From Candidatus Collierbacteria bacterium (GTDB lineage Bacteria; Patescibacteriota; Microgenomatia; UBA1400; JACPES01), in contig JACRNH010000002.1 in assembly GCA_016219325.1 (NCBI GenBank), forward strand, positions 3,862 through 67,861: a stretch of DNA of 64,000 nt, read 5' to 3'. Below, in pieces: positions 5,477 to 61,207 of this stretch. The position numbers and the translations under genes are program-made. The notes below the pieces were generated by a model. That model was not told the DNA's origin, did not search any database, and saw nothing but the letters and a program-made list of their open reading frames with translations. The stretch's first letter is position 1. Every line of letters begins with the position of its first letter.

Positions 5477-6125
5477 GTATAAATTGAATAACAGGTCCGG
5501 TTAGATAGAAAATCGGCGCGGTCCCTCCCCACGGCAAAACCATCATAATTAATAAAATAGTTCCGAATTGGGCTTGAATCTGTTCCCATTCGCGGGCTAA
5601 AGATAAAGGGAGTATACCTGATAAAATTTTACCTCCATCCAAAGGATGAACCGGAACGAAATTGAAAACAGCGAGGACAATAGAAATAACTATAAAAGGC
5701 TGCAGGATTAAAAGGCCTAAAAGGTTAGAAGGTAAAAAGCGAAGTAGAACTGCCGCTAAAGTCGCAGTCAGTAAATTTGACGCCGGTCCGGCTATTGAAA
5801 TCAGCATCGCGTCCCGCCGCGGATTTCTTAAGTTAAACTGGTCGAACTGAACCGGCTTTCCCCAGCCGAAACGGAAAAGAATCAACATTAAAGTTCCAAT
5901 TGGGTCAAGATGGGCCAGGGGATTAAGGGTTAGCCGTCCCTGGAGCCGGGGAGTGGGGTCGCCGAGGCGGTCCGCGGCCCAAGCGTGGGCGAATTCATGA
6001 ATTGTAATTGCGGCTGCGATCGCCAAAAGCGAAATCAAAAACGACAATGGCGAACTGATTAGAGTGTCTATCATTAATAATTTGATAAATAATATATACC
6101 AATATGTACCAATGATAAATGACAA
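5442..6125 (-). CDS. M50-family (site-2 protease-like) metalloprotease
   Basis: HEFAH zinc motif in a TM helix and NFVPVHPLDGG (the LDG motif); polytopic membrane protein. Confidence 0.6.
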   Translation of the reverse strand: MSFIIGTYWYILFIKLLMIDTLISSPLSFLISLLAIAAAITIHEFAHAWAADRLGDPTPRLQGRLTLNPLAHLDPIGTLMLILFRFGWGKPVQFDQFNLRNPRRDAMLISIAGPASNLLTATLAAVLLRFLPSNLLGLLILQPFIVISIVLAVFNFVPVHPLDGGKILSGILPLSLAREWEQIQAQFGTILLIMMVLPWGGTAPIFYLTGPVIQFILNILLGFRPAA

Positions 6126-6228
6126 ATGTCAGATAAAAAATTCGACGTTCTTTTATTAGTGCAGATTAGTACATATTTGTATATATTTGTCATTTTAATT
6201 CCGTTATATACCAATGATAAATGACAAA

Positions 6229-6633
6229 CTAAAGACTTTTATCTGTGAATTTCTTGTTTTTAGTATTTTTGATTATAGCGCTAAATATTTTTATTAACTG
6301 GTCAGCTTCTTCTATCAAAGAATCTACTTCAATTTCAGGCATAATGCTTCTAAAAATTCTTAGCCAATAATGACTTTCTTTTGCTTCCCGTTTGGTTAAC
6401 TCGTATTTGTAAATAAAATCATTTGTACTTGATGCCCCATCAGTTTCTTGGTCATTTGCTCCCGTTGACGTTACTGCTCTTGTTAGTTGCCCAACGATTA
6501 TTTTATTTCGTGGGCTATAGGGGATTTTATCTAAAAGTCTCAAGACGCTGACAACCCAGCTAAATACGCGATCATGAATGTTCCGTATCTGCTTGCTATT
6601 TGTCATTTGTGCAGATTGGTGCAGATTTATCAT
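6229..6633 (-). CDS. four-helix-bundle protein (23S rRNA IVS-protein family)
   Basis: GQLTRAVTSTGANDQE...STNDFIYKYELTKREAKESHYWLRI pattern. The likely start is the internal Met at 6606 (MTNSKQIRN). Confidence 0.5.
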   Translation of the reverse strand: MINLHQSAQMTNSKQIRNIHDRVFSWVVSVLRLLDKIPYSPRNKIIVGQLTRAVTSTGANDQETDGASSTNDFIYKYELTKREAKESHYWLRIFRSIMPEIEVDSLIEEADQLIKIFSAIIKNTKNKKFTDKSL

Positions 6634-6658
6634 TATTCATTATGCTATCATATCTATT

Positions 6659-6859
6659 ATGTCTTTAACTTGCGATTCCTGCGGAAAGGGTTATCAGCGC
6701 GGCCATAGCGTATCTCACGCTAAAAACCGCCATCTGCGGATCTTTAAACCCAATTTGCACCGTCATCTGGGCCGCTTACTCTGCACCCGCTGCATTAAGA
6801 AATCCAAGAATCAACCTGCCGGAAAGGAGCAAGATAAAAATGAGCGTCAGGGAATGTAA
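6659..6859 (+). CDS. rpmB: 50S ribosomal protein L28
   Basis: CDSCGKGYQRGHSVSHAKNRHLRIFKPNLHRH matches the L28 signature (C..CGK...G..VSHA.N...R.F.PNL). The in-frame ATG at 6659 gives about 66 aa; the tracked ORF start at 6578 is probably an upstream extension. Confidence 0.6.
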   Translation: MSLTCDSCGKGYQRGHSVSHAKNRHLRIFKPNLHRHLGRLLCTRCIKKSKNQPAGKEQDKNERQGM

Positions 6860-7124
6860 AGCTAAAATGTGTTCCGTCACAGAATCCCTGCTGCAAGATT
6901 GGACTGGTTATTTTCATTGTCTGGCTACGGCCGGCCCGGTGGTATTTAATCGATGTCCGGATTGTTTGGCCGGAACTTTACTGGCCGAACTGGGACAGTC
7001 GGTTGAAACGCTGGCGGAACTTCGCGACGGAATTTCGTTATTGAAGAAACCCGCCCACCCGAGTTTCAACGAAGGCCACGACGGAATGATATTGTCGGGA
7101 TAATTTTTCTGGTATTATCTTCCC

Positions 7125-7982: not shown

Positions 7983-8984
7983 TTAAATAAATTCTATCCC
8001 CGGATGTCCCGCCAGAAACGCCTTCCAACTAATCGGATTTTTGCCGGGCAGTTGGACCTCGTCGATTACTAAATAATTCTGAATTCTGAATTCTGAATTC
8101 TGAATTGGCTCAATATGGGATTTATTAATTATTATTCTGACAGTTTTGAATTTTGAATTTTGAGTTTTGAATTTGGAGTTAGTCCACGCCCCCGGCCACG
8201 GCGTTATTGCTCTTATAAATCTTTCTATCTCAACTGGCGTTTTTTTCCAGTCAATCTGGCCCGAGTCTTTGGTAAGTCTATGGGTGTAAGAAGTGGGAGA
8301 CTTTTCCGGCTGCTTAACTTCATTAATTTGTCCATTTTCTAATTTTTTAAGCGTTTCAACAATCAATTTACCGCCGAGTATTCCGAGGCGGCGAGTTAAT
8401 GTTTCCCGCGTATCTTCGGACGAACCCGATTTTTTTCTCTGGAAAAAATCGCCGGTACGCCCGAACCCCGAAGGATCGCTCTTTACGGGCGTGGACGTAG
8501 ACCACGACGTAAAGGTAGATTCCTTCTGGGGTGGTTGTGAAATTTTCAGCGATCTTTGTCCCAGCACCGGTCCCAAATCAATTTCTTCCGTCATTTTCAT
8601 AATCGAAACCCCGGTTTCTTTGTCTCCATTTGCCATCGCTCCGAAAACAGGCGAAGCTCCGCGCCAGCGCGGCAAGAGCGAGGCGTGGACATTTAAACAA
8701 CCGTATTTTGGCCAGTTCAGAATTTCGTTGGGAAGAAACGGCGGCCCGAAGGCAGCGAGAACAATAGCATCTGGGGTGTCGCTAACCGATAAGCGCGAAC
8801 CGATAAACGTCCCCCGAAGAGAAGCAATAGAGATATCTTCATTCCGGTTAACGATTAGCGATTGACGATTAATGATGTTTTTTTGTTTCGCGACGACGAT
8901 TGGCACCTCATGTCCCGCTTCCAGCAACGCCTCCAGCACCGGCGGCGAAAACCATGGATCGGATCCAAAGAAAATAATCTTCAT
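7983..8984 (-). CDS. fmt: methionyl-tRNA formyltransferase
   Basis: MKIIFFGS N-terminus and the HASLLPRWRGASP signature. It carries an S/T-rich insertion of about 40 aa and a C-terminus encoded by heptamer repeats. Confidence 0.7.
   Translation of the reverse strand: MKIIFFGSDPWFSPPVLEALLEAGHEVPIVVAKQKNIINRQSLIVNRNEDISIASLRGTFIGSRLSVSDTPDAIVLAAFGPPFLPNEILNWPKYGCLNVHASLLPRWRGASPVFGAMANGDKETGVSIMKMTEEIDLGPVLGQRSLKISQPPQKESTFTSWSTSTPVKSDPSGFGRTGDFFQRKKSGSSEDTRETLTRRLGILGGKLIVETLKKLENGQINEVKQPEKSPTSYTHRLTKDSGQIDWKKTPVEIERFIRAITPWPGAWTNSKFKTQNSKFKTVRIIINKSHIEPIQNSEFRIQNYLVIDEVQLPGKNPISWKAFLAGHPGIEFI
8074..8107. repeat. (TGAATTC)n heptamer tandem repeat inside the fmt 3' end
   Basis: aattctgaattctgaattctgaattctgaatt is visible in the sequence. 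A (TGAATTT)n run follows at 8144-8176. Confidence 0.8.
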
Positions 8985-20349: not shown

Positions 20350-20986
20350 TTTCCTCTAGCCTTTCTTTTTTTTCCCTATACATAATTCCATTTTGGGCCA
20401 TGGTGTGGTCGGTAAACAGGATGCCGTTGAGGTGGTCAAGTTCGTGCTGAAAGACTCGGGCGGCTAGGGCATCGAGAGTAAATACTGAATACTGAATACT
20501 GAATACTGAATTGGATGAGAGCGATTGTTCTGTCAAGATCATTGTCTTTGTTTTGATCCACGGCCAGCGGAGGACGGTTCCGTAGATTTTTGGGATTGAC
20601 AGACAACCCTCAAGAAAGGGATGAGCGTTGCCCGTTGAGCGTTGTGCGTTGCTTTCGACTAAATCTTCTCCCAGAGTCATTTCTTTTGGATGGTTGACGA
20701 TTTCAGGGTTTATATAATAAATTAACTCCGGTCCGTCCTTCTTCCCTTTTCCTTCTTCCTTCTTCCTTCCCGCCTCCAGCAACGTTGCAAACACTCTTAC
20801 TGGTCTCCCAACCTGCACCGCCGATAAGCCAATTCCCTGGGGGTTAGATTGCCTTTTCAGGGTTTTGCCTAAATCAGCCATAAATTTTACCAACTCATCA
20901 TCAATTTTGTTAATTCCTTGGCTTTTGGAGCGCAATATTTTTGTGTCGTTTGGCACTGTTAAAATTCTCATGGTAGAATTATACAT
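20339..20986 (-). CDS. def: peptide deformylase
   Basis: GIGLSAVQVG, EGCLSIP and HELDHLNG motifs. The start is probably the Met at 20971 (MRILTV). It carries an in-frame (TGAATAC)4 repeat insertion. Confidence 0.7.
   Translation of the reverse strand: MYNSTMRILTVPNDTKILRSKSQGINKIDDELVKFMADLGKTLKRQSNPQGIGLSAVQVGRPVRVFATLLEAGRKKEEGKGKKDGPELIYYINPEIVNHPKEMTLGEDLVESNAQRSTGNAHPFLEGCLSIPKIYGTVLRWPWIKTKTMILTEQSLSSNSVFSIQYSVFTLDALAARVFQHELDHLNGILFTDHTMAQNGIMYREKKERLEEISL
20479..20512. repeat. (TGAATAC)4 heptamer repeat inside def
   Basis: aatactgaatactgaatactgaatactgaatt; encodes SVFSIQYSVF on the minus strand. Confidence 0.8.
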
Positions 20987-21326: not shown

Positions 21327-23426
<2,100 letters not shown>

Positions 23427-25654: not shown

Positions 25655-25810
25655 CTGTTATCCGATTTCTGTTTTCAGTTATCGGATTCAGGTTTATCGG
25701 TTTTCAGTCTGTCGGTCTCGAAACCGGAAAACCGAAAACTGGCAAACTTGCAACCGAAAACCGATAACCGAGAACTGATAACTAATTCTATCAGTTTATC
25801 GCTAATCTGC
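25655..25810. repeat. about 130-bp TTATCGGTTTTCGG palindromic element, intergenic copy
   Basis: cagttatcggattcaggtttatcggttttcag ... aaccgaaaaccgataaccgagaactgataact; sits between divergent mreB and the mreCD-mrdA side. Confidence 0.8.
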
Positions 25811-27719: not shown

Positions 27720-29452
27720 AATTCGGGCCATTAGGATCGTCAACTAATATTCAGAAGCATAATTTTTTACCATTGGGAATAATAGTAATAATTATGATGT
27801 CTGTATTGGGGATAATTTTAGCCAGGTTGACGACTCTGACTGTTTTTCGCGGTCAAGAATTGAGGCGCAGGGCAGATGAAAATAGAATTCTGATTAGGAA
27901 AATTCCCGCTCCGCGAAGAATTATTTTTGACCGTAACGGCAAGGCTTTAACCAGGAATGCTCCTGAAGGAAGGATATATCCATTTGAAAAAAATTTTACT
28001 CATGTGATTGGTTATGTAGGTGAAGTTTCAGAAGATGAAATGCAAAACGATTCATCTTTAAATATCGGAGATGCCATTGGCAAATCAGGCTTGGAAAAAC
28101 AATATGATAGAACATTGAGGGGGGTAGACGGGGCAGAATTGATCGAGGTGGACGCTATGGGGAATTTGCTTGGCGTTTTAGAAGATTTGCCGCCTCAATC
28201 AGGCAAAGATCTACACACAAATTTAGATGCTAATTTGCAAATTGCGATGACAGAGAGTTTAGGAGATAGAAAAGGAGCGGCTGTGGCAATTGATCCGGTT
28301 GACGGAACCGTATTGGGATTGGCGTCAAGTCCGGCGTATGATCCGAATGTGTTTGGGAAAATAATGAGCAATGAGCAGAAAATAGAAAGTAATGAAAAAG
28401 AAATTCAAAACTTGCTAACAGATACGATAAATCTTCCTTTGTTCAATCGCGCCATTTCAGGAGAATATCCGCCGGGATCAATTTTTAAGTTGGTAACTGC
28501 AGCTGCGGGATTGGCGGAAAATAAAATTAACAGCCGGACTTTGATTATGGATACAGGGGAAATTAAAATCGGGGCATTCCGGTTCGGGAATTGGTATTTT
28601 GATCAGTATGGAAAAACAGAAGGTGAAATCGGAATCATCCGAGCCCTGGCCAGAAGCAATGATATTTTTTTCTATAAGGTCGGGGAATTGCTTGGTCCGG
28701 ATTTACTATCCGGTTGGGCTAGGAAATTTGGCTTGGGGGAAAAAACAGAAATTGATCTTATCGGTGAAGTTGACGGATTGGTCCCGGATTCTAAATGGAA
28801 AGAAAAAACAACAGGCGAAAGATGGTTTTTAGGAAATACTTATCATATGGCTATTGGTCAGGGGGACGTTCAGTTAACCCCTTTGCAGGCGGCAATGATG
28901 GCGGGGGCGGTGGCGACGGGGAAAAAATGTCAGCCGCGCATTGCCAATTCAGTATTCAGAATTCAGAATTCAGAATTAAATTGTCAGGATATTGGGATAT
29001 CTGACCAAGACCGAAATTTAATTTTAGAAGGTATGGTTGGAGCTTGTTCAACCGGCGGTACCGCCTTTCCATTTTTCCCCTGGAATCAATCAATTGAAGG
29101 TCTAACCTTCAATAAAGCCATACATCAATCAAATGGTATAAGCAATTATCCGGCTGTGGCCTGTAAAACCGGAACTTCCCAGCATGGTGGAAAACAAATC
29201 AAACCGCACGCCTGGATAGTAGTGGTAGGCCCGATAGCGCAGCGGAATTCAGAATTCAGAATTCCCTGCCCGCCATCGGCTATCGCCGAAGGCGATTGCA
29301 GGCGGGAGAATTCAGAATTATATAAGTTGGATTTGGAATCAAAAAAACGAATTGTTTTGGTGGTGATGTTGGAGGATGCAGGAGAGGGCTCTTACGAAGC
29401 CGGTCCGGTTGCCAAAAAGATTTTGGAAAAGTGGTTTAAAAATGACGATTGA
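27716..29452 (+). CDS. mrdA: penicillin-binding protein 2 (transpeptidase)
   Basis: N-terminal TM; SIFK (SxxK) and KTGT motifs. Start at the ATG overlapping the mreD stop (the tracked ORF begins at 27617). Three in-frame repeat insertions. Confidence 0.75.
   Translation: MKFGPLGSSTNIQKHNFLPLGIIVIIMMSVLGIILARLTTLTVFRGQELRRRADENRILIRKIPAPRRIIFDRNGKALTRNAPEGRIYPFEKNFTHVIGYVGEVSEDEMQNDSSLNIGDAIGKSGLEKQYDRTLRGVDGAELIEVDAMGNLLGVLEDLPPQSGKDLHTNLDANLQIAMTESLGDRKGAAVAIDPVDGTVLGLASSPAYDPNVFGKIMSNEQKIESNEKEIQNLLTDTINLPLFNRAISGEYPPGSIFKLVTAAAGLAENKINSRTLIMDTGEIKIGAFRFGNWYFDQYGKTEGEIGIIRALARSNDIFFYKVGELLGPDLLSGWARKFGLGEKTEIDLIGEVDGLVPDSKWKEKTTGERWFLGNTYHMAIGQGDVQLTPLQAAMMAGAVATGKKCQPRIANSVFRIQNSELNCQDIGISDQDRNLILEGMVGACSTGGTAFPFFPWNQSIEGLTFNKAIHQSNGISNYPAVACKTGTSQHGGKQIKPHAWIVVVGPIAQRNSEFRIPCPPSAIAEGDCRRENSELYKLDLESKKRIVLVVMLEDAGEGSYEAGPVAKKILEKWFKNDD
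28358..28397. repeat. AATGAGCAATGAGCAGAAAATAGAAAGTAATG element inside mrdA
   Basis: Encodes IMSNEQKIESNEK. Confidence 0.75.
28947..28978. repeat. (TTCAGAA)n heptamer repeat inside mrdA
   Basis: attcagtattcagaattcagaattcagaatt; further copies at 29246-29266 and 29310-29325. Confidence 0.8.
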
Positions 29453-30652: not shown

Positions 30653-30786
30653 ACCGTTATCAGTTTTCGGTTATCAGTTATCAGTTTCAGGTTGGTCGGT
30701 TTTCGGTTAATCAGTTTCCGAAACCGGCAAACCGAAGACCGATGGACTATAAACCGAAAACAGAAAACTGAGAACTGATAACCGGC
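30653..30786. repeat. about 130-bp TTATCGGTTTTCGG palindromic element, intergenic dprA-topA
   Basis: ccgttatcagttttcggttatcagttatcag ... aaccgaaaacagaaaactgagaactgataaccgg. Confidence 0.8.
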
Positions 30787-30806: not shown

Positions 30807-32948
30807 ATGAAACTTGTTCTTGTTGAGTCTCCGACCAAAGCCCGGACACTGACAAAATTTTTGGGCGGGGATTACAGAGTTGAAGCCACGATGGGGCATT
30901 TGCGGGATCTGCCCAAGAACAGGATGGGATTTTCGGTTAAGTCGGAAAACGGTAAAACTAAATTTTTGCCGGACTACGAAGTGGCGGCGGAAAAAAAATC
31001 CAAAGTTGCCGATTTGGTGGCGGCATCCCGCGGAATGGATAGAATTATTCTGGCGACAGATCCTGATCGGGAAGGAGAGGCGATTGCCTGGCATGTAGCC
31101 GCGCTTTTGCGCGGAACTCAAAATTCAAAATTCAAAATTCAAAATTTTCAAAGGGTTGTTTTTCATCAAATCACCAAAGACGCGATTCTAGACGCGATGA
31201 AGCATCCGCGGGAATTGGATATGAATTTGGTTGACGCTCAACAGGCCAGAAGGATTTTGGACAGGATGGTTGGATATCAGCTATCGCCGTTATTGTGGAG
31301 AAAAATCCGCCGCGGATTATCGGCCGGCCGTGTCCAAAGCGTTGCCGTCAGGATGATTGTTGAACGGGAGCGGGAAATTGAATCTTTTATGCCGGTTGAG
31401 TATTGGGAGGTATTCGTAAAAGTACAAGAAAGTACAAAAATGTACAAAAATGTACAAGAAGGTGAATTTGATGTCAAGCTGATTGAAATTGATGGGAATA
31501 AAGCTGATTTATCGAAGAAAAATCAGGTAGATCCGGTCGTTGAGGATTTGAAAAAAGCGCGATATTCAGTTGAGAAAGTTGATAGAACAGAAGTCAGGAA
31601 GCGGCCATTCCCGCCGTTTACTACCAGTACTTTGCAGCAGGCGGCATCCAGAACTTTCCGCTGGAGCGGTAAAAAAACTATGAATATCGCCCAAAGGTTA
31701 TATGAACATGGTTTTATTACTTATCACCGAACCGATTCAACTAATTTAGCCAAAGAAGCGGTGGAAAATGTCCGCCAATTAATTTTATCTAAATATGGGA
31801 AGGATTATTTGCCGTCTGAAGCAAGATTTTTTAAAACCAAAAACGCGCTGGCGCAGGAGGCTCATGAAGCAATTAGGCCAACCAATCCTATAGATTTTTA
31901 TAATCCGGGAAAACTGGAACAGGAAGTCGGATTAATCGCCAAAGACGCTTTCCGGCTTTATCAATTAATTTGGAAAAAATTTGTCTCCTGTCAGATGGCA
32001 GACCAGATTTATGACCAAACTACGATTAAGGTTTTGGCTCAGGGTATTAAAAAATACGGATTAAAAGTTGTCGGGATGGTGGAAAAGTTTGAGGGATGGA
32101 AAATACTTTATCAGTCGTCAGTTCTCGGTTCTCGGTTGTCAGATAAAAGTCAATCAGTTATCGGTTTATCAGTTTCAGGAGTCGAAAAACTGAAAACCGG
32201 TAAACCAGAAACTGAAAACGGAGAACAGAAAACTGATCAACCGTTACCCGAAGTTCAAGTTGGCGATCAGCTTCAATGCATCAAAGTGGATCCTCAGCAG
32301 AATTTTACCCAACCCCCCGGAAGATTCACTGAGGCGATGTTGATTAAGTTGTTGGAGGAAAAGGGGATTGGCCGGCCGTCAACTTACGCTCCGATTGTAA
32401 GTACGATCCAGGATAGGGGATACGTGGAAAAAATGGAAGGCAGATTTCATCCAATGCCGGTGGGGATAGTGGTAAATGATTTTTTGGTGGAATATTTTTC
32501 TTCAATTGTGGATTATGATTTTACTAAGAATTTGGAAGAGGATTTTGACAAAATAGCGGAAAATAAAAAAGGCTGGAATGATGTGTTAGGGGAATTTTAT
32601 TCTCCGTTTGTTGAAAGGCTGAAGAAAGTTGAAATTGGGGCGGAGAGGAAAAGAATTCCGGCTGAAGAAACAGGGGAAAGCTGTCCCAAATGCGGGGAAG
32701 GCCGGCAAGTTATTCGATCGGGGAAATTCGGTAAATTCCTATCCTGTTCGCTGTTTCCTAAATGCGATTGGAAAAATAAATATGTGGAAAAATCAGGCGT
32801 TAAATGCCCGTTATGCCGTGACGGCGACGTGGTAGTTAAGAAAACAAAAAAGGGTCGTCACTTTTTCGGTTGTTCAAATTATCCGAATTGTAAATTCGCC
32901 AGCTGGAGAAAGCCGGGGGGGGAACTAGCAAAAAAACAGGAAATATGA
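30807..32948 (+). CDS. topA: DNA topoisomerase I
   Basis: MKLVLVESPTKARTL, a TOPRIM domain, the catalytic region, and C-terminal Cys4 zinc ribbons (CPKCGEG, CPLCRDG). Two in-frame repeat insertions. Confidence 0.85.
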   Translation: MKLVLVESPTKARTLTKFLGGDYRVEATMGHLRDLPKNRMGFSVKSENGKTKFLPDYEVAAEKKSKVADLVAASRGMDRIILATDPDREGEAIAWHVAALLRGTQNSKFKIQNFQRVVFHQITKDAILDAMKHPRELDMNLVDAQQARRILDRMVGYQLSPLLWRKIRRGLSAGRVQSVAVRMIVEREREIESFMPVEYWEVFVKVQESTKMYKNVQEGEFDVKLIEIDGNKADLSKKNQVDPVVEDLKKARYSVEKVDRTEVRKRPFPPFTTSTLQQAASRTFRWSGKKTMNIAQRLYEHGFITYHRTDSTNLAKEAVENVRQLILSKYGKDYLPSEARFFKTKNALAQEAHEAIRPTNPIDFYNPGKLEQEVGLIAKDAFRLYQLIWKKFVSCQMADQIYDQTTIKVLAQGIKKYGLKVVGMVEKFEGWKILYQSSVLGSRLSDKSQSVIGLSVSGVEKLKTGKPETENGEQKTDQPLPEVQVGDQLQCIKVDPQQNFTQPPGRFTEAMLIKLLEEKGIGRPSTYAPIVSTIQDRGYVEKMEGRFHPMPVGIVVNDFLVEYFSSIVDYDFTKNLEEDFDKIAENKKGWNDVLGEFYSPFVERLKKVEIGAERKRIPAEETGESCPKCGEGRQVIRSGKFGKFLSCSLFPKCDWKNKYVEKSGVKCPLCRDGDVVVKKTKKGRHFFGCSNYPNCKFASWRKPGGELAKKQEI
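31128..31150. repeat. (AAATTCA)n heptamer repeat inside topA
   Basis: aaaattcaaaattcaaaattcaaaatt, encoding NSKFKIQNF; preceded by the hairpin ccgcgcttttgcgcgg. Confidence 0.8.
32110..32243. repeat. about 130-bp TTATCGGTTTTCGG palindromic element inserted in frame in topA
   Basis: Encodes SSVLGSRLSDKSQSVIGLSVSGVEKLKTGKPETENGEQKTDQ without interrupting the ORF. Confidence 0.8.
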
Positions 32949-35418: not shown

Positions 35419-35497
35419 ATTTTGTTATCTTGTTATCTTGTTATCTTGTTACTAATCAAGATAACAATCTAGCAAGATAGCAAGCTAGCAATTATTC
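35419..35497. repeat. (TTGTTATC)3 tandem plus inverted partner (AAGATAACAA / AAGATAGCAAG)
   Basis: ttgttatcttgttatcttgttatcttgttactaatcaagataacaatctagcaagatagcaagctagcaa. Confidence 0.7.
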
Positions 35498-43794: not shown

Positions 43795-43837
43795 CAAGCT
43801 CAAATCGCAAATCTCAAAGTGCAAAATCAAGCTAAAA

Positions 43838-43885
43838 GTTAAAAACTTTGAATTTTGAACTTGGAGTTGATATTTGAGTTTTGAG
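43838..43885. repeat. (TTTTGAA)n-type repeat, intergenic tsf-frr
   Basis: aaactttgaattttgaacttggagttgatatttgagttttgag; related to 8144-8176. Confidence 0.7.
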
Positions 43886-43889
43886 TTAA

Positions 43890-51927: not shown

Positions 51928-52103
51928 GCCGTTATAAGAGTACGTAAAATCTCCGGGATTGGCGGATATATATCCGGCGTTGCCCGCCAAGGTTAATTTT
52001 TCCACCCTGTCTTTCGGAGGTGAATACAATCTTTTTTTATTTGTTTTTCTGGATTTAATTTTCATAGTTTATGATAACAATAATAATATACTTTTGACAT
52101 ATA

Positions 52104-52547
52104 GTGTCAACTTTAAATTTAATGATACCAAAACAGACGGAAAATTATTTCAGGTTAAAAATATTCAACAAATCATCGGGCGGAATTTTCAAGATGGTTA
52201 TCAGGGGAAACAGTATGTGGCCGTTTTTAAGGCACGGACAGGAGATTACGGTTAGAAAGTTGAAGGAAAACGAGTCGTGCCGGATTGGAGATATCGTGGT
52301 TATAAAAATTAGGAATTTCTTTTTGATCCATAGAGTTCTGTTAAGAAAGAAAACAAAAGATGGTGGGGGCTATGAATATTTTACGAAAGGTGATAGGAGG
52401 TTGGTTGGCGATGGGTGGATAAAGAATAAGAATATTGTCGGTCGAATACCGACAGGGAAAACACAAAGAGTATTTGGTTATTTAACAGCTTGTTACTCTT
52501 TTGCCCTGCTTCTCATTGGGGAAATAATTAACAGAAGAAACGCCTGA
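52104..52547 (+). CDS. S24/S26-type serine peptidase (LexA/signal-peptidase fold)
   Basis: VIRGNSMWPFLRHGQEITV resembles the GDSMeP Ser nucleophile motif, and GRIPTGK is a possible Lys. An alternative start is the ATG at 52194, downstream of a TTGACA-N17-ATTTAA candidate promoter. Confidence 0.4.
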   Translation: MSTLNLMIPKQTENYFRLKIFNKSSGGIFKMVIRGNSMWPFLRHGQEITVRKLKENESCRIGDIVVIKIRNFFLIHRVLLRKKTKDGGGYEYFTKGDRRLVGDGWIKNKNIVGRIPTGKTQRVFGYLTACYSFALLLIGEIINRRNA

Positions 52548-53365
52548 ATCTTTTGCAGAATAGATTGATTGGCAATCAAAAGCCTAAGGAAAATATTGTA
52601 GCGGAATCTAAGATGCATATTGCGGATTGGCGATTTTACGGTGTGGGAATTGATAAACAACGGAACCAATGAGCTAAGGATATTTTTGGGTTTTAATTTT
52701 AATAAGACGGAATTAGGCACATTTGCTTTTGCGGTTTGCTTAGATAGAAGCAGAGGATAATAAGCGAATTCTTTTAAATTCCATGAAGCAAGTCTTGAAA
52801 TAACGATTTCCCAATTAATATCTAGATTTCTTGTAATTAATGAAATATCAAAAGACTGATGCTGATTTCGGCAACTATGATGGAAGAAAAAGTTAAGGCA
52901 TTGATGAAGGAGCATGTCCTCATTTTCCAAAATCAGAAATTTATTTCTTTGAAAGATAATTGATTGCGCCCGCCTGATAAATTCAGAAGTGATTCGTTTT
53001 ACTAACTTTGGAGGCAGAACATTAAAAATATACTTTGTGGGAAAAAATATCTGATTATGAATATCGCAAACAATCGTTGCTCTTGGCAATTTCTTTACAA
53101 AGTTTATTTGTGGCCTTAATGATGGTTGTTGATAGAAACGGTGTTTTGAATAGCCTAAGGATTTAAGAATAAGATTGACTTTAGAAAACGAGCTATTAGG
53201 AATTAGGATATCGATATCAACAGGATGTATTTTGGGCCATCGGCCGGTTAAGAAATAATATTGGGTAATTCCTTTTAGATATACCGCCTGAACCCCTTTG
53301 CGGTTTAGGGCGCGCTGGAGTTTAAGCAATTCATCGACGTAGATAAGTAATTTTTCCTCAATCAT
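52493..53365 (-). CDS. PF14907-like uncharacterised nucleotidyltransferase
   Basis: AVYLKGITQYYFLTGRWPKIHPVDIDILIP matches LKG...Y...R...DIDlLv. Confidence 0.4.
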   Translation of the reverse strand: MIEEKLLIYVDELLKLQRALNRKGVQAVYLKGITQYYFLTGRWPKIHPVDIDILIPNSSFSKVNLILKSLGYSKHRFYQQPSLRPQINFVKKLPRATIVCDIHNQIFFPTKYIFNVLPPKLVKRITSEFIRRAQSIIFQRNKFLILENEDMLLHQCLNFFFHHSCRNQHQSFDISLITRNLDINWEIVISRLASWNLKEFAYYPLLLSKQTAKANVPNSVLLKLKPKNILSSLVPLFINSHTVKSPIRNMHLRFRYNIFLRLLIANQSILQKIQAFLLLIISPMRSRAKE

Positions 53366-53404
53366 TTTGTCGGGAGAAAATGATTAATGTGAAAGTCAAA
53401 TAAT

Positions 53405-53641
53405 TTAACGAACAAAGCCCTGCCGTATTTCTTGTTTAATATTACCTTTTGATAAACAATTTAGAATCAATTCCCAATCTCCGCAAAATTTATATTTAGG
53501 ATTAAATCGTAATCCTTGGACCGCAGATTTTCGGAAAACCATATGTGAAAGTTGTCCAAGAAACGGAGCGGAGCGGGGAAGACGCTTTTGGTTAAATAAG
53601 CAGGAAGCAATTTTAAGTAAATCTTTAAATATATTGACCAA
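53405..53641 (-). pseudogene. family 2 glycosyltransferase, C-terminal fragment
   Basis: FRKSAVQGLRFNP is a GT2 C-terminal motif. It is separated from the N-terminal fragment by a frameshifting 73-bp tandem duplication. Confidence 0.5.
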
Positions 53642-53642
53642 T

Positions 53643-53788
53643 TTAAGTCGGAATATTCTTTGTGGCGGCCAATCTTTCGGATAAATCTTTTGGGACAGGC
53701 AAACGGTCGCTATCTTTAAGTCGGAATATTCTTTGTGGCGGCCAATCTTTCGGATAAATCTTTTGGGACAGGCAAACGGTCGCTATCG
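53643..53788. repeat. perfect 73-bp tandem duplication
   Basis: ttaagtcggaatattctttgtggcggccaatctttcggataaatcttttgggacaggcaaacggtcgctatc occurs twice, back to back. Confidence 0.9.
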
Positions 53789-54116
53789 TGGATTGATCGT
53801 TTTGCAAATATCGCAGAGAAACTTTAAGAAAATCTTTATTCCAAATGTCATCCGAGTCAAGAAATGCAATATAATCGCCTTTGGCATATTGGAACCCTGA
53901 ATTTCTGGCAGCCATAGAACCTTTTGATTTATTGATTCTAACAATTTTGACATGACCGCTAAAAGTTTTTAGTTGAGAAGAAAGCGGGGGTTGCGATCCG
54001 TCATCAACAATGATTATTTCCGTGGGAATATTTTGAGATAATACCGATCCGATCGTTTTCCGTAATAAGGCAACTCTGTTTTTAGCCGGAATAATGACTG
54101 AAGTTGCAAGAGACAT
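53643..54116 (-). pseudogene. family 2 glycosyltransferase, N-terminal fragment
   Basis: VIIPAKNRVALLRKTIGSVLSQN...IIIVDDGS...DSDD is the GT-A DxD layout. It terminates inside the duplicated segment. Confidence 0.5.
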
Positions 54117-54220
54117 GATATAGTGATCAGCTTAATTTGACTATATTATATGATTGTCTCTCAGGGCATAGAATTTTTGCTGATTATGACTAAAAGAAAT
54201 AAGTATAACTGCTTAGAACA

Positions 54221-55201
54221 ATGAGCTATTATCCTACAATTGCAATTGTTGGATGTGGGGCTATTGTTGAAACATTTTATTTGCCATCGTTTCATAAATT
54301 GGGATATGCAAAGAATAAAATTATTCTTGTGGATACAAATAACGACAGGTTACATAAATTGGGGGATAAGTTTGAGTTAAAGAAGATGACCATTGACTAT
54401 AGAAAAATATTGAATAAAGTTGACGGTGTCATTATTACCACACCAAGCTACTTACATTTTGAGCAAACAATTCAATTTCTAAAGAACGGTGTTTATGTTT
54501 TAAGCGAAAAACCGCTTGTTACAAGTTTTTCTCAATATAAAAAGATCTTAAATTTAGAAGAGAAAAGTGGATATAAAATATTGATTAATCATACAAAGAG
54601 ATTATTTCCAGTTTCTATTGAAATAAAAAATAAAATAAATTCTGGAGTAATTGGGAAACCATTGGGCTTTGACTACTCCGAAGGAGGACAGTTTACTTGG
54701 CCGACAGCGTCAGGATTTTATTTTCAATGGGATAAGGGTGTGTTAATTGATCGGGGATCTCACGCAGTTGATTTGGTTTGTTGGTGGTTGGGAAAACCAA
54801 AATCAATTAGTTATATAGATGATTCTTTTGGCGGAAGCGAAGCCGTAGCATTGTTGAATTTTAAGATTAATTCATGTAAAGGTAGAATAAAGTTTAATTT
54901 GTTCAATAAGCTATCTAATAAATATTATATTAAAGGCGCCAAGGGCGAAATTAGCGGTGATATTTACGATTTTACATCGTTTCTATTGACCAACTATTCT
55001 GATAAATCTACTGTTAAGATTACGCTTCCAACAAAGCAAAAGACCTACTTCGATTTTGCGGATATATTGATCAGAAATTTTATAGATATGATTTCTAATC
55101 ATGCTGATCCATTAATATCAGTTAGCGATATTAAAGATTCCGTTGAGACTATTGACTATTGTTATAGACACAGACAAAGATTTAACATGCCATGGTTTTA
55201 A
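54221..55201 (+). CDS. Gfo/Idh/MocA-family oxidoreductase
   Basis: IAIVGCGAIVETFYLPSF Rossmann N-terminus and EKP motif. Confidence 0.55.
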   Translation: MSYYPTIAIVGCGAIVETFYLPSFHKLGYAKNKIILVDTNNDRLHKLGDKFELKKMTIDYRKILNKVDGVIITTPSYLHFEQTIQFLKNGVYVLSEKPLVTSFSQYKKILNLEEKSGYKILINHTKRLFPVSIEIKNKINSGVIGKPLGFDYSEGGQFTWPTASGFYFQWDKGVLIDRGSHAVDLVCWWLGKPKSISYIDDSFGGSEAVALLNFKINSCKGRIKFNLFNKLSNKYYIKGAKGEISGDIYDFTSFLLTNYSDKSTVKITLPTKQKTYFDFADILIRNFIDMISNHADPLISVSDIKDSVETIDYCYRHRQRFNMPWF

Positions 55202-56259
55202 AAATGGAGAAGAGGGTCATTTTTGTTACAGGCGCTACCGGTTTTATTGGGGGAAGAGTTATAGAAAAACTTTCTAATGATAATAAGAATACGGTTATAG
55301 CAGGAGTCCATAATTGGAGTAACGCCGCCCGAATTGGACGGTTTCCGATAATAATGAGGCATTGCGACGTTTTAAATTTGCCCAGTCTAAAAAAAACTTT
55401 GAACGGTGTTACTCATATAATTCATTGTGCCGCAGGCTCAGACGAAATTATTATTAAAGGTACAAGTAATATCCTTAATGCCGCAATGGGGCTAAAGGTT
55501 AAAAGATTAATAAACCTTAGCAGTGCTGCTGTATATGGAAAAATTTCAGGATTAATTGATGAATCTGTTGTGCCTAACCCGATTGATCAATACGGTAAGG
55601 CAAAGCTTTGTGGCGAAAAAGAATGTTTTAAATATATGCTTCAGAGAGTGCCAATCGTAATATTGCGGCCATCAATAGTATACGGTCCGTTTAGCCAAAA
55701 ATGGACAATTGGAATTGGCAGGCAAATACTTCGAAAAAAAATCGGTTTGTCGTCAGGGTTTGAGGGGAAATGTAATTTATTATACGTCGATGATTTAATT
55801 GATGCAATCTTCTTATCTTTACATAAAGAAGAGGCGGTAAGTGAAACATTCAATGTTAATGGTCCGGAAATTGTGAGCTGGAATGATTATTTTAGAATTT
55901 TTAATAGATTGTTATCATCCGAAGCGCTCATCAGCATAAAACACACAGAATACCTTAGATTAATGGTTGCGGCTAATTTTTTAGGTCCAGTTAAAATAGC
56001 GGCTAAATTAGCTCTAGCCAAGCAGGAATCGTTAATCAGATTTATTTATAGAAGATTTCAATTAATGAGAAAAATTATGGATGGGGTTGAAAACGAAATT
56101 AAATTAAACATTAATTCGTCTGACCTTAGATTATTCCAGCTTCGCGCAATTTATGAAACCAAAAAGATAAATCGCGTTTTAAAATTTAAACCGAGAACCA
56201 GTATTGAAACTGGATTAAAAAAGACGATTGCGTGGATGAAACATGTTGAAATCATCTAG
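55192..56259 (+). CDS. NAD-dependent sugar epimerase/dehydratase (SDR)
   Basis: VIFVTGATGFIGGRVIEKL and YGKAK (YxxxK). Confidence 0.65.
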   Translation: MVLKMEKRVIFVTGATGFIGGRVIEKLSNDNKNTVIAGVHNWSNAARIGRFPIIMRHCDVLNLPSLKKTLNGVTHIIHCAAGSDEIIIKGTSNILNAAMGLKVKRLINLSSAAVYGKISGLIDESVVPNPIDQYGKAKLCGEKECFKYMLQRVPIVILRPSIVYGPFSQKWTIGIGRQILRKKIGLSSGFEGKCNLLYVDDLIDAIFLSLHKEEAVSETFNVNGPEIVSWNDYFRIFNRLLSSEALISIKHTEYLRLMVAANFLGPVKIAAKLALAKQESLIRFIYRRFQLMRKIMDGVENEIKLNINSSDLRLFQLRAIYETKKINRVLKFKPRTSIETGLKKTIAWMKHVEII

Positions 56260-57523
56260 ATTTTTCTTGGGTCACATGACCACCAATATCAAGCCGACCA
56301 TAATCTTCATTACTCAGCTTTATCCATTTCCTCCGGATACAGGTGGAAAATTTAAAACATTTGGGACGATAAAAGCTTTGCGAGATTTAGGCTGCAAGAT
56401 TAAATTATTTTCCTTCTGGGATAGTAGAAGTCCGTTTTACATGAAAATGAGTAAGCCACTGAAGGGGATTGAATCTAATATTATTTATAGCTCAATAATT
56501 GATGATTTACACCCTTTATATAAATATTGGAAGGTATTTTTATCAATTTTTTCGTTTTTCCCCTATAGGGTAAGAAAGTTCTATTCCAAAGGAATCATTA
56601 AGACAATTAAAAAAGACGTACCAAATTTGGAGAATCCCTCTATTATTTATTTAGATCACTTATCTTCATGTATTTATTTATTTAAAAATACCCCTGCCTA
56701 TTATCAGAAAATTTATGATGCTCATGATTTTGAGTCAGAAATAATCTATCATAGGATCAGGAATTCAAAAAGCTTCATTAGAAAAATTTTCCTTTATCTA
56801 GAATATCTCAAGCTTAAGAAATTTGAAAAAAAAGCTTTGATGGCGGCAGATAAGGTCTTTGCAATAAATGAGCCGTTAAAATTGAGATTGGAGACCCTTT
56901 CATCTCGCACCGTATTAACATCATCGGTCGCTGTTTTTGGGAGTAAATCCCTTAGGCTAAATAAAAATAAACCCGAAGGTAAAAGAATAGTTACTTTTAT
57001 TGGCACCTTATCATGGGAGGAAAATTTAGAAGGGATTGATTGGTTTATTTCTAAGGTCTGGGGGATGGTAAAAAGAATTGTTAAAGAGGCAGAATTTAAT
57101 ATTGTTGGGAGTTATGGGAATGAAAAGTTGCGAAAAAAATTCTCAAAATACGAGGGAGTAAATTATTTAGGTTATAAAAAGGATTTAAGGGAGATCTATC
57201 AACAAACTTCCGTTGGGATAGTTCCTATTTTTTCTGACTCCGGAGTAAAAATTAAATTTTTAAATTTTATTTTTAATTCAATACCGGTGGTGTCAACATC
57301 TATGAGTGCTGCCGGAATACTGGGGGTTAAGGATTCAGTTAATTGTTTTATTGCAGATAGGCCTGAGGAATTTGCTGAAAGAATAATAACTCTACTTCAG
57401 GATAAAAAGTTACGGACTAGTATGGTCACAAAGGGTAAAAAACTTACTTCACGTTATTATTCGGAAAAAAGCTTAAGAGAATTTTTTAAAAAAACATTGG
57501 CTCTATCTCGTCGAAGCGATTGA
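56243..57523 (+). CDS. GT4-family glycosyltransferase
   Basis: GT-B layout with a C-terminal EGIDWF...VSTSMSAAGI nucleotide-sugar-binding region. Confidence 0.55.
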   Translation: MLKSSRFFLGHMTTNIKPTIIFITQLYPFPPDTGGKFKTFGTIKALRDLGCKIKLFSFWDSRSPFYMKMSKPLKGIESNIIYSSIIDDLHPLYKYWKVFLSIFSFFPYRVRKFYSKGIIKTIKKDVPNLENPSIIYLDHLSSCIYLFKNTPAYYQKIYDAHDFESEIIYHRIRNSKSFIRKIFLYLEYLKLKKFEKKALMAADKVFAINEPLKLRLETLSSRTVLTSSVAVFGSKSLRLNKNKPEGKRIVTFIGTLSWEENLEGIDWFISKVWGMVKRIVKEAEFNIVGSYGNEKLRKKFSKYEGVNYLGYKKDLREIYQQTSVGIVPIFSDSGVKIKFLNFIFNSIPVVSTSMSAAGILGVKDSVNCFIADRPEEFAERIITLLQDKKLRTSMVTKGKKLTSRYYSEKSLREFFKKTLALSRRSD

Positions 57524-58717
57524 TCCTCTGTAGATTTTTTCCAGTTTTTCGATTTTATCTTCCCATCTGAAGTGTTTCTCAATATATGATCTTGCAGTGA
57601 ACCCGATTGCTTGACAGAGATCGGGGTTACGCAGGAGGTTAACTACTGATTCTGCAAAATCAATTTCTTTGTCGGCAATTATTAATTCTTTTCCAGACTT
57701 AAAATTAAAATTCTTGCAAGATAGACTGGTCGCAACTACTGGTTTGGCTAACGCCATGGCCTCCATTAATTTATTATGAATGCCGGCTCCCATGATTAAC
57801 GGACATACAACTACGTGGACATCATTAAATGAATTTGCTAGATTTTCAACATAGCCGGTAATCTCTATGCGATTGTCTTTTGCTAAGTTAAGAATGGTTT
57901 TTGGCGGGGATGCTCCAATAATTTTAAACTTGATATTGGGAAATTGCTCGGCTATAAAAGGAAAAATTTTTTTATAGAAATATATAACTGCGGTTGAATT
58001 AGCAATATAACTAATTTTTCCAGAGAAGGCGATAGTTGGCTCTCTTTTGCAATTAAAGTTTTTAAAGCTTGGAGAAGGCGGAAATAATGTTAGGTCTACG
58101 CCATTTTCTATACTTGCGATTCTTTTAATTCCGCTGATTTTTTTTAGTAGTAATGCCTCATGATTAGTGCTAGTTATGACGTACCGAAATTTATTTAGGC
58201 GCTGTTTTTCAAATGCGAGTACACGTTTAGATTCCATAGCATAAATTTTTTTCCAAATTGAGCTTTCAACAGTACCTGCAAACTGTTTATAGAGATCACT
58301 GAAACAATCGACGGCATCAATAATAATAGGAATCAAATTATTCAGTCCCAAATCTCCCGAAACAGAGTTCGCCACCTTGAAGGTTTCAACATGTATGCAG
58401 TCGTATCTGTGGTTTTTTAGCAACTGTAAAATTAATATTTTTAGGCTCTTGGAGACAAAATAATGTTGCTGAAAAGGTTTTCCATCAAAGACCGACAAAG
58501 TCGTTCGCAGTTGGCGTAAAACACTGAAGTCTTTAACCAAATATTGCCTTATCCTATTGTTTTTTTGTAAGTCTTCCATTCCTATAATTTCTGCTGATGA
58601 AGAATATGGAGCTATAATATCTACGAAATGACCTCTATCGGCCAACCCAATTGCGAAATTCCGTAATCGAGTACGAATTGGATTTGGAGGATAAGGAGCA
58701 ATAAATAATATCTTCAT
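57503..58717 (-). CDS. GT4-family glycosyltransferase
   Basis: MKILFIAPYPPNP...ADRGHFVDII and the GT-B C-terminal domain. Confidence 0.55.
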   Translation of the reverse strand: MKILFIAPYPPNPIRTRLRNFAIGLADRGHFVDIIAPYSSSAEIIGMEDLQKNNRIRQYLVKDFSVLRQLRTTLSVFDGKPFQQHYFVSKSLKILILQLLKNHRYDCIHVETFKVANSVSGDLGLNNLIPIIIDAVDCFSDLYKQFAGTVESSIWKKIYAMESKRVLAFEKQRLNKFRYVITSTNHEALLLKKISGIKRIASIENGVDLTLFPPSPSFKNFNCKREPTIAFSGKISYIANSTAVIYFYKKIFPFIAEQFPNIKFKIIGASPPKTILNLAKDNRIEITGYVENLANSFNDVHVVVCPLIMGAGIHNKLMEAMALAKPVVATSLSCKNFNFKSGKELIIADKEIDFAESVVNLLRNPDLCQAIGFTARSYIEKHFRWEDKIEKLEKIYRGSIASTR

Positions 58718-60024
58718 TTATTACTATAATTAGCTTTAATTCCTCGTAATATCATAAATGCATAAAGTGACGATTTTGAGTATGAGTCGATTAAGCTATT
58801 AATTAAAAAAAGCCAACTTGAAATAATCATCGCAATTAGATATGGCGTTGGTGAACTTTTCATCATGTGGACATCTGCTTTAAATATTTTCCAGGCTATC
58901 GTGAATAGTAGTATGGTTCCTATTAGTCCAAGTTCCATCAATGATTCAACAACAATGTTGTGTGATTCGGGAATAATATAATTGACTGTGGGTAATTTTC
59001 CGATAAACTTACCTGTCGTATTTAATAATACGAGTTCTGACGATTGAGAATATTGCGTAAAATTTCCGGTCCCAATTCCGATAATAGGATTATTCACAAA
59101 TAGAAGCATGCCTTCTTTGAGGAGGCTTATGTGTTCATAGGTAGTACTTAAGTCAAAGTCATTTTTCATTAATAATCGATCTAAAAGGTTGATTTTTAAT
59201 AGTTGCTTAGAGCTAAATAAAGAAAATGTAGTTACCGATATAAAAAGTAAAACAGCATACAAACGATTCGATAATGAAAATGTTTGATTTTTTTTCTGAG
59301 AGCAACCCAGAAAGAACAAAAAAGCGAATATCCCAATACTTGACGTGATTAAATGGCTGCGATAATTCCAGAATACAACCATTAATAGAATCATTGCAAA
59401 AGATGTTGCTCCAAAAATTTTCCAAAACCGATTTTTAGAAGCAAAAAATAGCGCCAGTGGAAAAAGGATGCTCATTTCTAGAGGGCTGACTTGAGACAGT
59501 CTTCCTTTTGATTTTTCAGCTAACTGGTAATACAATCCGAAATCTTTTAGTAAATAACTCCATATTTGAGACCATAGGTTTTCATTGATGAAGGCTGTTA
59601 TCGTTATCATAAATAGTATAATTCCTATGGCAATCATGATTGAGATAAATAACTTAAGTATCCATTTCTTAATTCCTTGAAAAGAAAAAATATATACCAA
59701 GCTAAAAGCTGTAATTAATCTCAATATTCGCTTGAGATTTATGATTGAGCAACAATTAAACATGCCATTGATAACAGTATATTGAAGGAAAATTAAAACC
59801 AGCAGATAAGTTTCCCCATTTAATTTTTTATGAATATTATTGGGTCGGATTTGTCGATAGATTGTAGTAGAAGCTATAATGAAAATTAAGAGATTTAAAA
59901 TAATATCTAGTTGTGTTGTCAATGAATGAAAAAATGATAGAAAAATAACGGTTGCAAAAGACATTTTTTCCAAATAACGAAAAATTATTTTACCTTTACC
60001 AACATTATCGTGTTCATGGTGCAT
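58714..60024 (-). CDS. Wzy-like O-antigen polymerase/ligase membrane protein
   Basis: 436 aa, at least 10 TM helices, and a large periplasmic loop typical of Wzy/O-antigen ligase. Confidence 0.4.
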   Translation of the reverse strand: MHHEHDNVGKGKIIFRYLEKMSFATVIFLSFFHSLTTQLDIILNLLIFIIASTTIYRQIRPNNIHKKLNGETYLLVLIFLQYTVINGMFNCCSIINLKRILRLITAFSLVYIFSFQGIKKWILKLFISIMIAIGIILFMITITAFINENLWSQIWSYLLKDFGLYYQLAEKSKGRLSQVSPLEMSILFPLALFFASKNRFWKIFGATSFAMILLMVVFWNYRSHLITSSIGIFAFLFFLGCSQKKNQTFSLSNRLYAVLLFISVTTFSLFSSKQLLKINLLDRLLMKNDFDLSTTYEHISLLKEGMLLFVNNPIIGIGTGNFTQYSQSSELVLLNTTGKFIGKLPTVNYIIPESHNIVVESLMELGLIGTILLFTIAWKIFKADVHMMKSSPTPYLIAMIISSWLFLINSLIDSYSKSSLYAFMILRGIKANYSNK

Positions 60025-60055
60025 AAAGTAAATTTTAACCTATTGACTTTTTATT

Positions 60056-61177: not shown

Positions 61178-61207
61178 AACAAAGGTTATCCGAGATGGTG
61201 AATTTTT

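Follow-up and report, generated by a model that had tools for sequence, protein, structure and literature searches.

How can tandem repeats of a seven-nucleotide unit persist inside essential genes, where the gain or loss of a single unit shifts the reading frame? This question is raised by a 64-kb stretch of a metagenome-assembled genome of a groundwater Candidatus Collierbacteria bacterium (Microgenomates, candidate phyla radiation (CPR)), referred to here as the window. A preliminary description of this DNA had noted heptamer runs in fmt, def, mrdA, topA, murF and rseP, and had proposed them as contingency or phase-variation loci, or at least as hypermutable sites. We consider it probable that heptanucleotide repeats have spread into the coding DNA of Collierbacteria, where slippage in a 7-nt register is filtered by selection. 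As the repeats occur genome-wide in many genes and also as intergenic hairpins, they are best read as the outcome of a mutational process under purifying selection, rather than as locus-specific, adaptive switches.

We detected arrays with Tandem Repeats Finder and with a custom scan for period-7 runs. The heptamer runs are real, and were recovered at or within a few bases of the positions first reported (Table 1). The topA run is present, although at 31118-31146 rather than 31128-31150. A supposed run of three to five heptamers at 29310-29325 in mrdA, with its 1.7 or so units (GAATTCAGAATT), is too short to be detected as an array. The intergenic heptamers reported at 43838-43885 do lie there, but they belong to an inverted pair (43799-43887) that forms a hairpin, which is a different arrangement from that of the solo coding arrays. 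NCBIfam confirmed the identities of all six genes; each run has homology on both sides, and the open reading frame (ORF) of every listed gene is intact.

Tandem Repeats Finder reported 38 period-7 arrays and 17 period-14 rows in the 64 kb, and seven is the dominant period of the repeat spectrum of the window. Twelve perfect period-7 runs of at least 2.5 copies were observed, where Markov-1 simulated sequences with the dinucleotide transitions of the window gave an expectation of 0.1. Period-7 arrays with at least three copies occurred at 4.4 per 10 kb, about ten times the density of 0.42 per 10 kb in 528 kb of unrelated def-containing metagenome loci (at most 37% identity, among the matches listed). 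Periods 9, 12 and 6 dominate in these control loci, and an unrelated Tannerella locus contained no period-7 arrays at all. Among Collierbacteria relatives, the density ranged from 2.7 to 6.8 per 10 kb, with 1.0 in the array-poor locus L008. Beside the TGAATNY family, the window holds further heptamer families (AATGAGC, AAACCGA/CGGTTAT, AGAAGGA and AGTAGAA). Unrelated loci share units more often than chance predicts: there were 8 identical-unit pairs versus 0.5 expected, a number that none of 2000 null draws reached, and 37 near-identical pairs versus 9 expected. For example, GAATTCA units are found in fmt and three times in mrdA, TTCAAAA in fmt and topA, and GTATTCA in def and murF. The distribution of copy numbers in the window and its relatives is non-monotonic (2.x, 15 arrays; 3.x, 11; 4.x, 31; 5.x, 5; 7.x or more, 3), with many arrays at 4.6-4.7 copies; the coding arrays that we tested had tracts of 2.9-4.9 copies.

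The reported runs had been described as coding and in frame, which agrees with what we found: all 15 strong arrays of the window lie within long intact ORFs and keep the frame, and 55 of the 65 arrays in the window and its relatives fall in coding sequence. Each is read as a peptide with a period of seven amino acids. On the sense strand the units are always NNATTCA (GAATTCA, GTATTCA, GCATTCA, AAATTCA) or AA[AT]CTCA, and the TGAATNY orientation is confined to the antisense strand. The strand opposite an NNATTCA unit holds TGA. As all three frames are read within three units, no array can be coding if its sense strand reads TGAATNY. When weighted by composition, only about 56% of heptamers are free of stop codons whichever frame is read. 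The orientation of the arrays tracks the strand of the gene. GC skew is positive throughout the window, and replication direction therefore does not explain array orientation. Taken at the level of sequence, these frame and orientation constraints indicate that the arrays are translated and not spliced out. The arrays are found at relative positions from 0.12 to 0.92 along their proteins, with no N-terminal bias.

Orthologous sites in related genomes reveal how the arrays differ between lineages. The segment of Def between the EGCLS and QHExDH motifs, which holds the focal def array, is 41 aa long in 42 of the more distant Def hits and 42 aa in the relative P0032 (locus L008). It is exactly 49 aa in 12 clade members, in each of which the periodic peptide differs (peptides of this class include SVFSIQYSVF, SVFSIQDSVF, SAFSLQPSAF, SSLFLLPSSF, PLALSPHPLAL and ISNIRYQISNIR), and 52 aa in 13 others that carry an unrelated palindromic insert. 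At the DNA level, the focal site contains about 4.5 copies of TATTCAG, CCTTCAG, CCTCTTC or TTTACTC, depending on the species. The window reads C CAATTCA GTATTCA GTATTCA GTATTCA GTATTTA CTCT (five units) and the contracted allele of L008 reads C AAATTCA AAATTTT CTCT (two units); the flanks are identical, and the length difference is exactly 21 nt. Array regions explain extra residues relative to L008 in Def, in Wzy and in a 19-aa block of the mrdA product (arrays 2 and 3, the latter being the remnant in Table 1). At the first mrdA site, AATTCAG x4.4 of the window is matched in L006 by CAATCAG x3.6, with equal position and length. In about 20 Fmt orthologs, both sites are of equal length but built from different units, and both are absent from outgroups. 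In topA, the array region of the window is 15 nt longer than that of L006, the one close relative that a TopA search of species-representative genomes gave. Neither the peptide nor the unit is conserved at a given site (e.g., NSKFKTQNSKFKT, EYKDEGRRTKDEG and NGRWMMDDGRWHE), and in the Fmt ortholog P0128 an 11-aa insert is nested within the array.

Alignment to solved structures (PDB) places the focal Def array in the turn of a beta-hairpin that precedes the HExxH helix. In an AlphaFold2 model of Def (215-aa ORF, mean predicted local distance difference test (pLDDT) score 84), residues 74-82, at the third def array, form a loop with pLDDT below 50; the Def arrays map to this low-pLDDT loop and to an inter-strand connection, and the focal array, too, falls in a loop of the model. 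Judged from these sequence comparisons, the arrays were inserted in particular lineages, at fixed positions in loops that appear to be tolerant. The nature of the insert can also vary within close groups. In Fmt clusters of at least 90% identity (P0135/P0201-P0204 and P0124/P0198), alternative inserts occupy the site orthologous to 8075-8106, namely PNQQLTTNNQQ versus RDCHAPTSVGARNDV, or SSTINHQP. By the aligned sequences, this fmt site is polymorphic for insert type inside species-level clusters.

Strains were compared within Def and Fmt clusters at 90% identity or more. The def genes of L004 and L092, which come from different samples, are 98.0% identical, and the sole gap in 1,460 aligned nt is one of 21 nt. 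It lies at an AAGGAAG array, orthologous to 20736-20769 of the window, that has two units in one strain and five in the other. A second 7-aa indel was found at a periodic array within an Fmt cluster. Together with the turnover of units among species, these differences bear out the suggestion that the sites are hypermutable. The same comparison yielded one frame-breaking change next to the two three-unit, in-frame polymorphisms. At the site orthologous to 20481-20511, the def gene of L091 has four units, versus the five required in its cluster-mates; its ORF stops inside the contig, and the remainder of the gene, through the normal stop codon, is intact in the shifted frame. A slip of one unit thus does shift the frame, as had been anticipated. 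The L091 deletion is probably real, as such a short repeat should not collapse in an assembly at k=141. The HExxH motif is in frame in 82 of 83 Def alleles of the Collierbacteria clade, with the one-unit frameshift in the remaining allele, and all full-length Fmt alleles are in frame.

Split or truncated Fmt genes were also considered as array frameshifts, and the cause was checked for L009, L010 and P0199/P0200, leaving out P0146, P0149 and P0207. None of those checked qualified: L009 is explained by a scaffold gap, L010 by a contig edge, and in P0199/P0200 the frameshifts lie away from the arrays. The L009 gap (a run of N in the region 2560-2860) falls in fmt between two divergent versions of a repeat-rich N-terminal segment, which suggests that its flanks are co-assembled strain variants with differing arrays. 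Def and Fmt of the window are 100% identical to Candidatus Collierbacteria proteins in NCBI that are encoded on a contig of 70.5 kb. Exact look-ups of the window Def protein, with either start, matched no other contig, and a search for same-species metagenome contigs with exact def flanks and a variable gap between them gave no match.

Our explanation for these patterns is that heptanucleotide simple sequence repeats (SSRs), as known from cyanobacteria, Xanthomonas and Beggiatoaceae, would have spread into the protein-coding sequence of the Collierbacteria lineage. At short local seeds, such as AATTCAGTATT, in which ATT recurs 7 nt apart, slippage in a 7-nt register would add and remove units. 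As the genes are needed, selection would pass only three kinds of array: those with a sense-strand unit that is stop-free in all three frames, those with net changes of three units (21 nt, 7 aa; typical states would be two and five units), and those that fall in tolerant surface loops. The need for stop-free units would explain why the sense strand always reads NNATTCA and never TGAATNN. The arrays are translated as 7-aa-periodic loop peptides such as NSVFSIQYSVF. One-unit slips do occur and break the gene; as they are rare among the observed alleles, they are presumably purged. We infer both the role of slippage in generating the arrays and a deleterious effect, rather than a use, of out-of-frame alleles. 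The local seed is sufficient to derive the whole def array: the three inner units exactly copy ATTCAGT, a stretch that spans the two units of the seed, which fits slippage in a 7-nt register. According to Mrazek 2007, as relayed in PMC4679880, no class of long SSR is commoner than that of heptanucleotides, which was attributed to polymerase-linked slippage. Hairpin propensity was rejected as a general cause of multi-unit slippage. Solo arrays mostly lack predicted structure: only the GAATTCA arrays fold (z = -6.0 and -2.0), and the GTATTCA, TTCAAAA and AATCTCA arrays do not.

Several observations weigh against this explanation. To grow from two to five perfect units, an array must slip three times by 7 nt, and in an essential gene none of the intermediates is viable; steps of 21 nt alone would not maintain perfect 7-nt periodicity. 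The sharing of units among unrelated loci exceeds chance, which purely local seeding does not predict. The few non-coding arrays likewise have 4-5 copies, and the intergenic heptamers of Xanthomonas and Nostoc favour four units (PMC4692102), so that the frame constraint may be only part of the reason for the 4.x mode. Clean three-unit comparisons come only from the Def sites and one Fmt site, and other insertions differ from outgroups by +5, +8 or +9 aa. Finally, the same protein sites alternatively carry palindromic, GC-hairpin or even nested inserts. Because of the lethal intermediates, the shared units, the preference for four units and the alternative inserts, a trans-acting or dispersal mechanism stays the main rival.

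Such a process would seed or rewrite the arrays, with local slippage in a secondary role; ectopic templated repair between unit-sharing arrays and very small mobile elements, like those reported inside Nostoc heptamer repeats, are candidates for it. This is rather unlikely in our view, although it would account for the unit families common to unrelated genes (the 8 identical pairs where 0.5 were expected), for TTTACT[C/G] units common to four arrays of L001, and for orthologous sites that have different units in different genomes. The inserts found at the same sites, which are GC-hairpins or a palindromic element of about 55 nt (in def of L005 and 13 homologs, and in mrdA at 29080-29140), point the same way, as does the insert nested in the P0128 array. 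On the other hand, the def array needs no foreign template, as its local seed suffices, and we found no shared flanking motif or target-site duplication around the nine NNATTCA arrays. We also found no transposase or reverse transcriptase candidate within the window, and the Y1 transposase of L008 has no homolog there. A bolder version, in which a previously undescribed, frame-aware process of repeat writing or ectopic conversion installs or rewrites arrays in three-unit blocks at set loops of essential proteins, from templates common to several loci, and/or in which the paired fmt and def arrays reversibly switch off the formylation/deformylation cycle, appears more doubtful still.

The proposal of the preliminary description, that these are candidate contingency or phase-variation loci, is not supported, and we regard it as improbable that reversible one-unit slippage toggles def, fmt and other genes adaptively. 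In its favour, a seven-nucleotide unit is not divisible by three, and a difference of exactly one unit is what puts the otherwise intact def gene of L091 out of frame. The start of P0187, exactly inside another array, may be a further case. Loss of def is tolerated in E. coli if fmt is also inactive, and here both genes carry arrays. However, the tracts comprise only 2-5 units, far fewer than is general in characterised phase-variable tracts with long units. All of this concerns single-copy housekeeping genes, and no gene for surface structures or restriction-modification. Apart from the one Def allele, all clade Def and full-length Fmt alleles are in frame, and the Fmt fragments that we checked have the other causes given above. 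The arrays also lack an N-terminal bias; N-terminal SSR enrichment was linked to phase variation by Lin and Kussell (PMC3315296).

Less probable again is a function of the repeats themselves that would maintain them, either as peptide loops (e.g., surfaces for interaction) or as sites bound in RNA or DNA, for example by heptamer-binding cold-shock or S1-type proteins. Array sites are held at constant length in many orthologs, and binding of CspB to heptamer repeats has been discussed (PMC4679880). Yet neither unit nor peptide is conserved at a given site, arrays are missing from outgroups and array-poor relatives whose proteins are otherwise conserved, 2-unit and 5-unit alleles both occur in near-identical strains, and structure is predicted for few of the solo arrays. 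An assembly or sequencing artefact, which the L009 fmt scaffold gap with its duplicated variant flanks in a repeat-rich stretch might bring to mind, is scarcely credible, as the arrays are about 30 nt long and thus far below read length, recur at orthologous positions in assemblies of separate origin (NCBI, ENA, JGI and Logan), and keep frame and stop-freeness, unlike random artefacts.

Among known systems, these arrays come closest to the bacterial heptanucleotide SSR families, such as the cyanobacterial short tandemly repeated repetitive (STRR) sequences, GGGNATC and TAACTGA. They resemble these families in their tandem 7-nt units, in having genome-wide unit families, in copy numbers of 2-6 with a preference for about four, in their strong excess and in their restriction to a lineage. 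The GGGNATC (Xanthomonas, Nostoc) and TAACTGA heptamers are mainly intergenic and avoided in ORFs, and the rare cases within ORFs are in small hypothetical proteins (PMC4692102, PMC4679880). In the window, by contrast, it is conserved housekeeping genes that hold the strong arrays, which are translated and quantised in steps of three units (21 nt). One array of the window (GTTATCA x5.1, 30656-30690) corresponds to the reverse complement of TAACTGA, as its unit is TCAGTTA rotated; the TAACTGA repeat is known from Beggiatoaceae, Cyanobacteria and Bacteroidetes (PMC4679880). With the SSR contingency loci of Haemophilus, Neisseria and Campylobacter, the arrays share a non-triplet unit inside an ORF and one frame-shifted natural allele. 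Unlike those loci, they have tracts of 2-5 units, reside in essential housekeeping genes and not at the N-terminus, and vary in a predominantly frame-preserving way, with out-of-frame alleles at 1/83.

Another comparison is with Rickettsia palindromic elements (RPEs), in-frame insertions in metabolic or housekeeping genes that are translated and regarded as compatible with protein fold and function (PMC10969869). The arrays are similar in that they, too, are in-frame insertions into unrelated housekeeping genes of a small-genome bacterium, at fold-compatible positions. RPEs, however, are palindromic elements of about 150 bp that are dispersed and encode a conserved peptide, whereas the arrays are tandem, about 21-33 nt long and variable in unit. 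A closer analogue of RPEs is the palindromic element of about 55 nt (…ATCAATCAATTGAAGGTCTAACCTTCAAT…CATCAATCAA…) in mrdA, which is in frame and adds 14 aa relative to L008. Related palindromes occur in L005 (10440-10500, in def) and in L006 (about 7040-7100), and conservation of the mrdA element relative to L006 is above that of the flanking coding sequence. Its reverse complement has a 26-nt core (GAAGGTTAGACCTTCAATTGATTGAT) in common with the insert at the variable def site of L005 and 13 Def homologs, where the encoded peptide is LLDISxYRRSNLGLID. From its sequence, this palindrome looks like a small dispersed, in-frame-inserting element of the RPE type. Elhai and colleagues are said to have described, in Genome Research in 2008, small dispersed repeats of Nostoc that are embedded in heptamer arrays. 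The co-occurrence of tiny palindromic inserts with heptamer arrays, including the nested 11-aa insert of P0128, is alike here, but the Nostoc context is cyanobacterial and mostly non-coding. Our searches of the literature on heptanucleotide or tandem repeats with CPR, Patescibacteria or Collierbacteria found no prior description. We therefore judge the coding-embedded heptamer arrays of CPR bacteria to be a new form of the known heptanucleotide repeat families.

Table 1. Genes with heptamer arrays in the window, the arrays themselves and the intergenic inverted pair. Array units are given for the sense strand, followed by the encoded peptide.
Feature	Start	End	Strand	Description
fmt (methionyl-tRNA formyltransferase)	7983	8984	-	333 aa; NCBIfam
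fmt array b	8075	8106	-	GAATTCA x4.6, 100% matches; PIQNSEFRIQNY, aa 293-304 of 333
fmt array a	8144	8174	-	TTCAAAA x4.4, 91% matches; KFKTQNSKFKT, aa 271-281
def (peptide deformylase)	20339	20971	-	210 aa with the start as annotated at NCBI (P0001); NCBIfam
def focal array	20481	20511	-	4.4 copies, 100% matches (Tandem Repeats Finder); C CAATTCA GTATTCA x3 GTATTTA (5 units); NSVFSIQYSVF, aa 154-164 of 210, between the EGCLS and HExDH motifs
def second array	20622	20651	-	ACGCTCA, 4.3 copies, 78% matches; SNAQRSTGNAH
def third array	20736	20769	-	AGAAGGA, 4.9 copies; GRKKEEGKGKKD
mrdA (PBP2)	27716	29452	+	Start inferred from an ATG aligned with the L008 ortholog; NCBIfam
mrdA array 1	28946	28977	+	GAATTCA family, 4.6 copies, 92% matches; NSVFRIQNSEL
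mrdA array 2	29245	29264	+	GAATTCA x2.9, 100% matches; RNSEFRIP; within the 19-aa segment missing from L008
mrdA remnant	29312	29323	+	GAATTCAGAATT, about 1.7 units; marginal, below detection
topA (DNA topoisomerase I)	30807	32948	+	713 aa; NCBIfam
topA array	31118	31146	+	TTCAAAA x4.1, 100% matches; TQNSKFKIQNF, aa 104-114 of 713
Intergenic inverted pair	43799	43887	.	CTCAAAT... / ...TTTGAGT; long hairpin, z = -3.65
murF	47667	49025	-	452 aa; NCBIfam
murF array	48655	48687	-	GCATTCA/GTATTCA (AATGCTG and AATACTG mix), 4.7 copies, 92% matches; LHSVFSIQHSAF, aa 113-124 of 452
rseP (RIP metalloprotease)	49747	50856	+	369 aa; NCBIfam
rseP array	50219	50250	+	14-mer AACTCAAATCTCAA x2.3, or 7-mer x3.9 at 90% matches; heptamers AAACTCA/AATCTCA; ELKSQNSNLKT, aa 158-168 of 369

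Other repeats accompany the solo arrays. Inverted pairs of heptamer arrays (CGGTTAT/AAACCGA, GTTATCA, AGTAGAA/TTTCTAC and others) form long imperfect hairpins at 30656-30782, 22676-22759, 21880-21975, 22079-22150, 22932-23054, 25687-25774 and 32121-32236. One inverted pair is intergenic and lies upstream of topA, with 63-nt arms and a DNA fold z of -7.4, and several are translated, within the Wzy_C/TPR gene (21327-23426) and topA. A decamer array (AAAAGTACAA x4, 31418-31457) is an in-frame translated, non-triplet repeat within topA, and is kept in L006 (10598-10639). At 35419-35491, between genes, an octamer array (TTGTTATC x3.8) faces an inverted partner (CAAGATAG x4.4). As position and form of this octamer pair are conserved in L006 (14606-14673), it may be a functional hairpin, for example a terminator or regulator.

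A repeat of another kind, a perfect 73-nt x2 tandem duplication at 53642-53787, lies in a family-2 glycosyltransferase gene (minus strand, ORF 53643-54116), in its 3' part. As its second copy is read out of frame, the protein is truncated at 157 aa; with one copy removed, it gains about 85 residues. This duplication is a true frame-breaking repeat in a surface-polysaccharide gene. It is located in a low-GC block (52000-62000; 32-36% versus about 40-44% elsewhere) in which one Pfam-checked ORF encodes a family-2 glycosyltransferase, and which may be a cell-surface polysaccharide island. In L008, a Y1 transposase gene (PF01797, 232 aa) that is absent from the window lies between mreB and the Wzy gene (5950-7000), and both its flanks bear near-identical hairpins (TAGCC[TA]C…GGAGTATCC…GTGGCT) similar to repetitive extragenic palindromic (REP) sequences. 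This transposase was rejected as the driver of the arrays, as it has no homolog in the window, L001, L005 or L006.

Coding DNA would be expected to lose microsatellites with non-triplet units, yet they pervade essential genes in the reduced genome of a CPR bacterium. In these genes the reading frame acts as a built-in recorder of repeat dynamics: only stop-free orientations and net changes of three units survive, and the rare one-unit slips are directly visible as broken genes. This makes the Collierbacteria arrays a tractable system for the still unexplained origin of bacterial heptamer repeats. The arrays are a source of rapid variation in loop length and sequence in conserved enzymes, and they call for caution in the annotation and alignment of CPR proteins and in the calling of pseudogenes.

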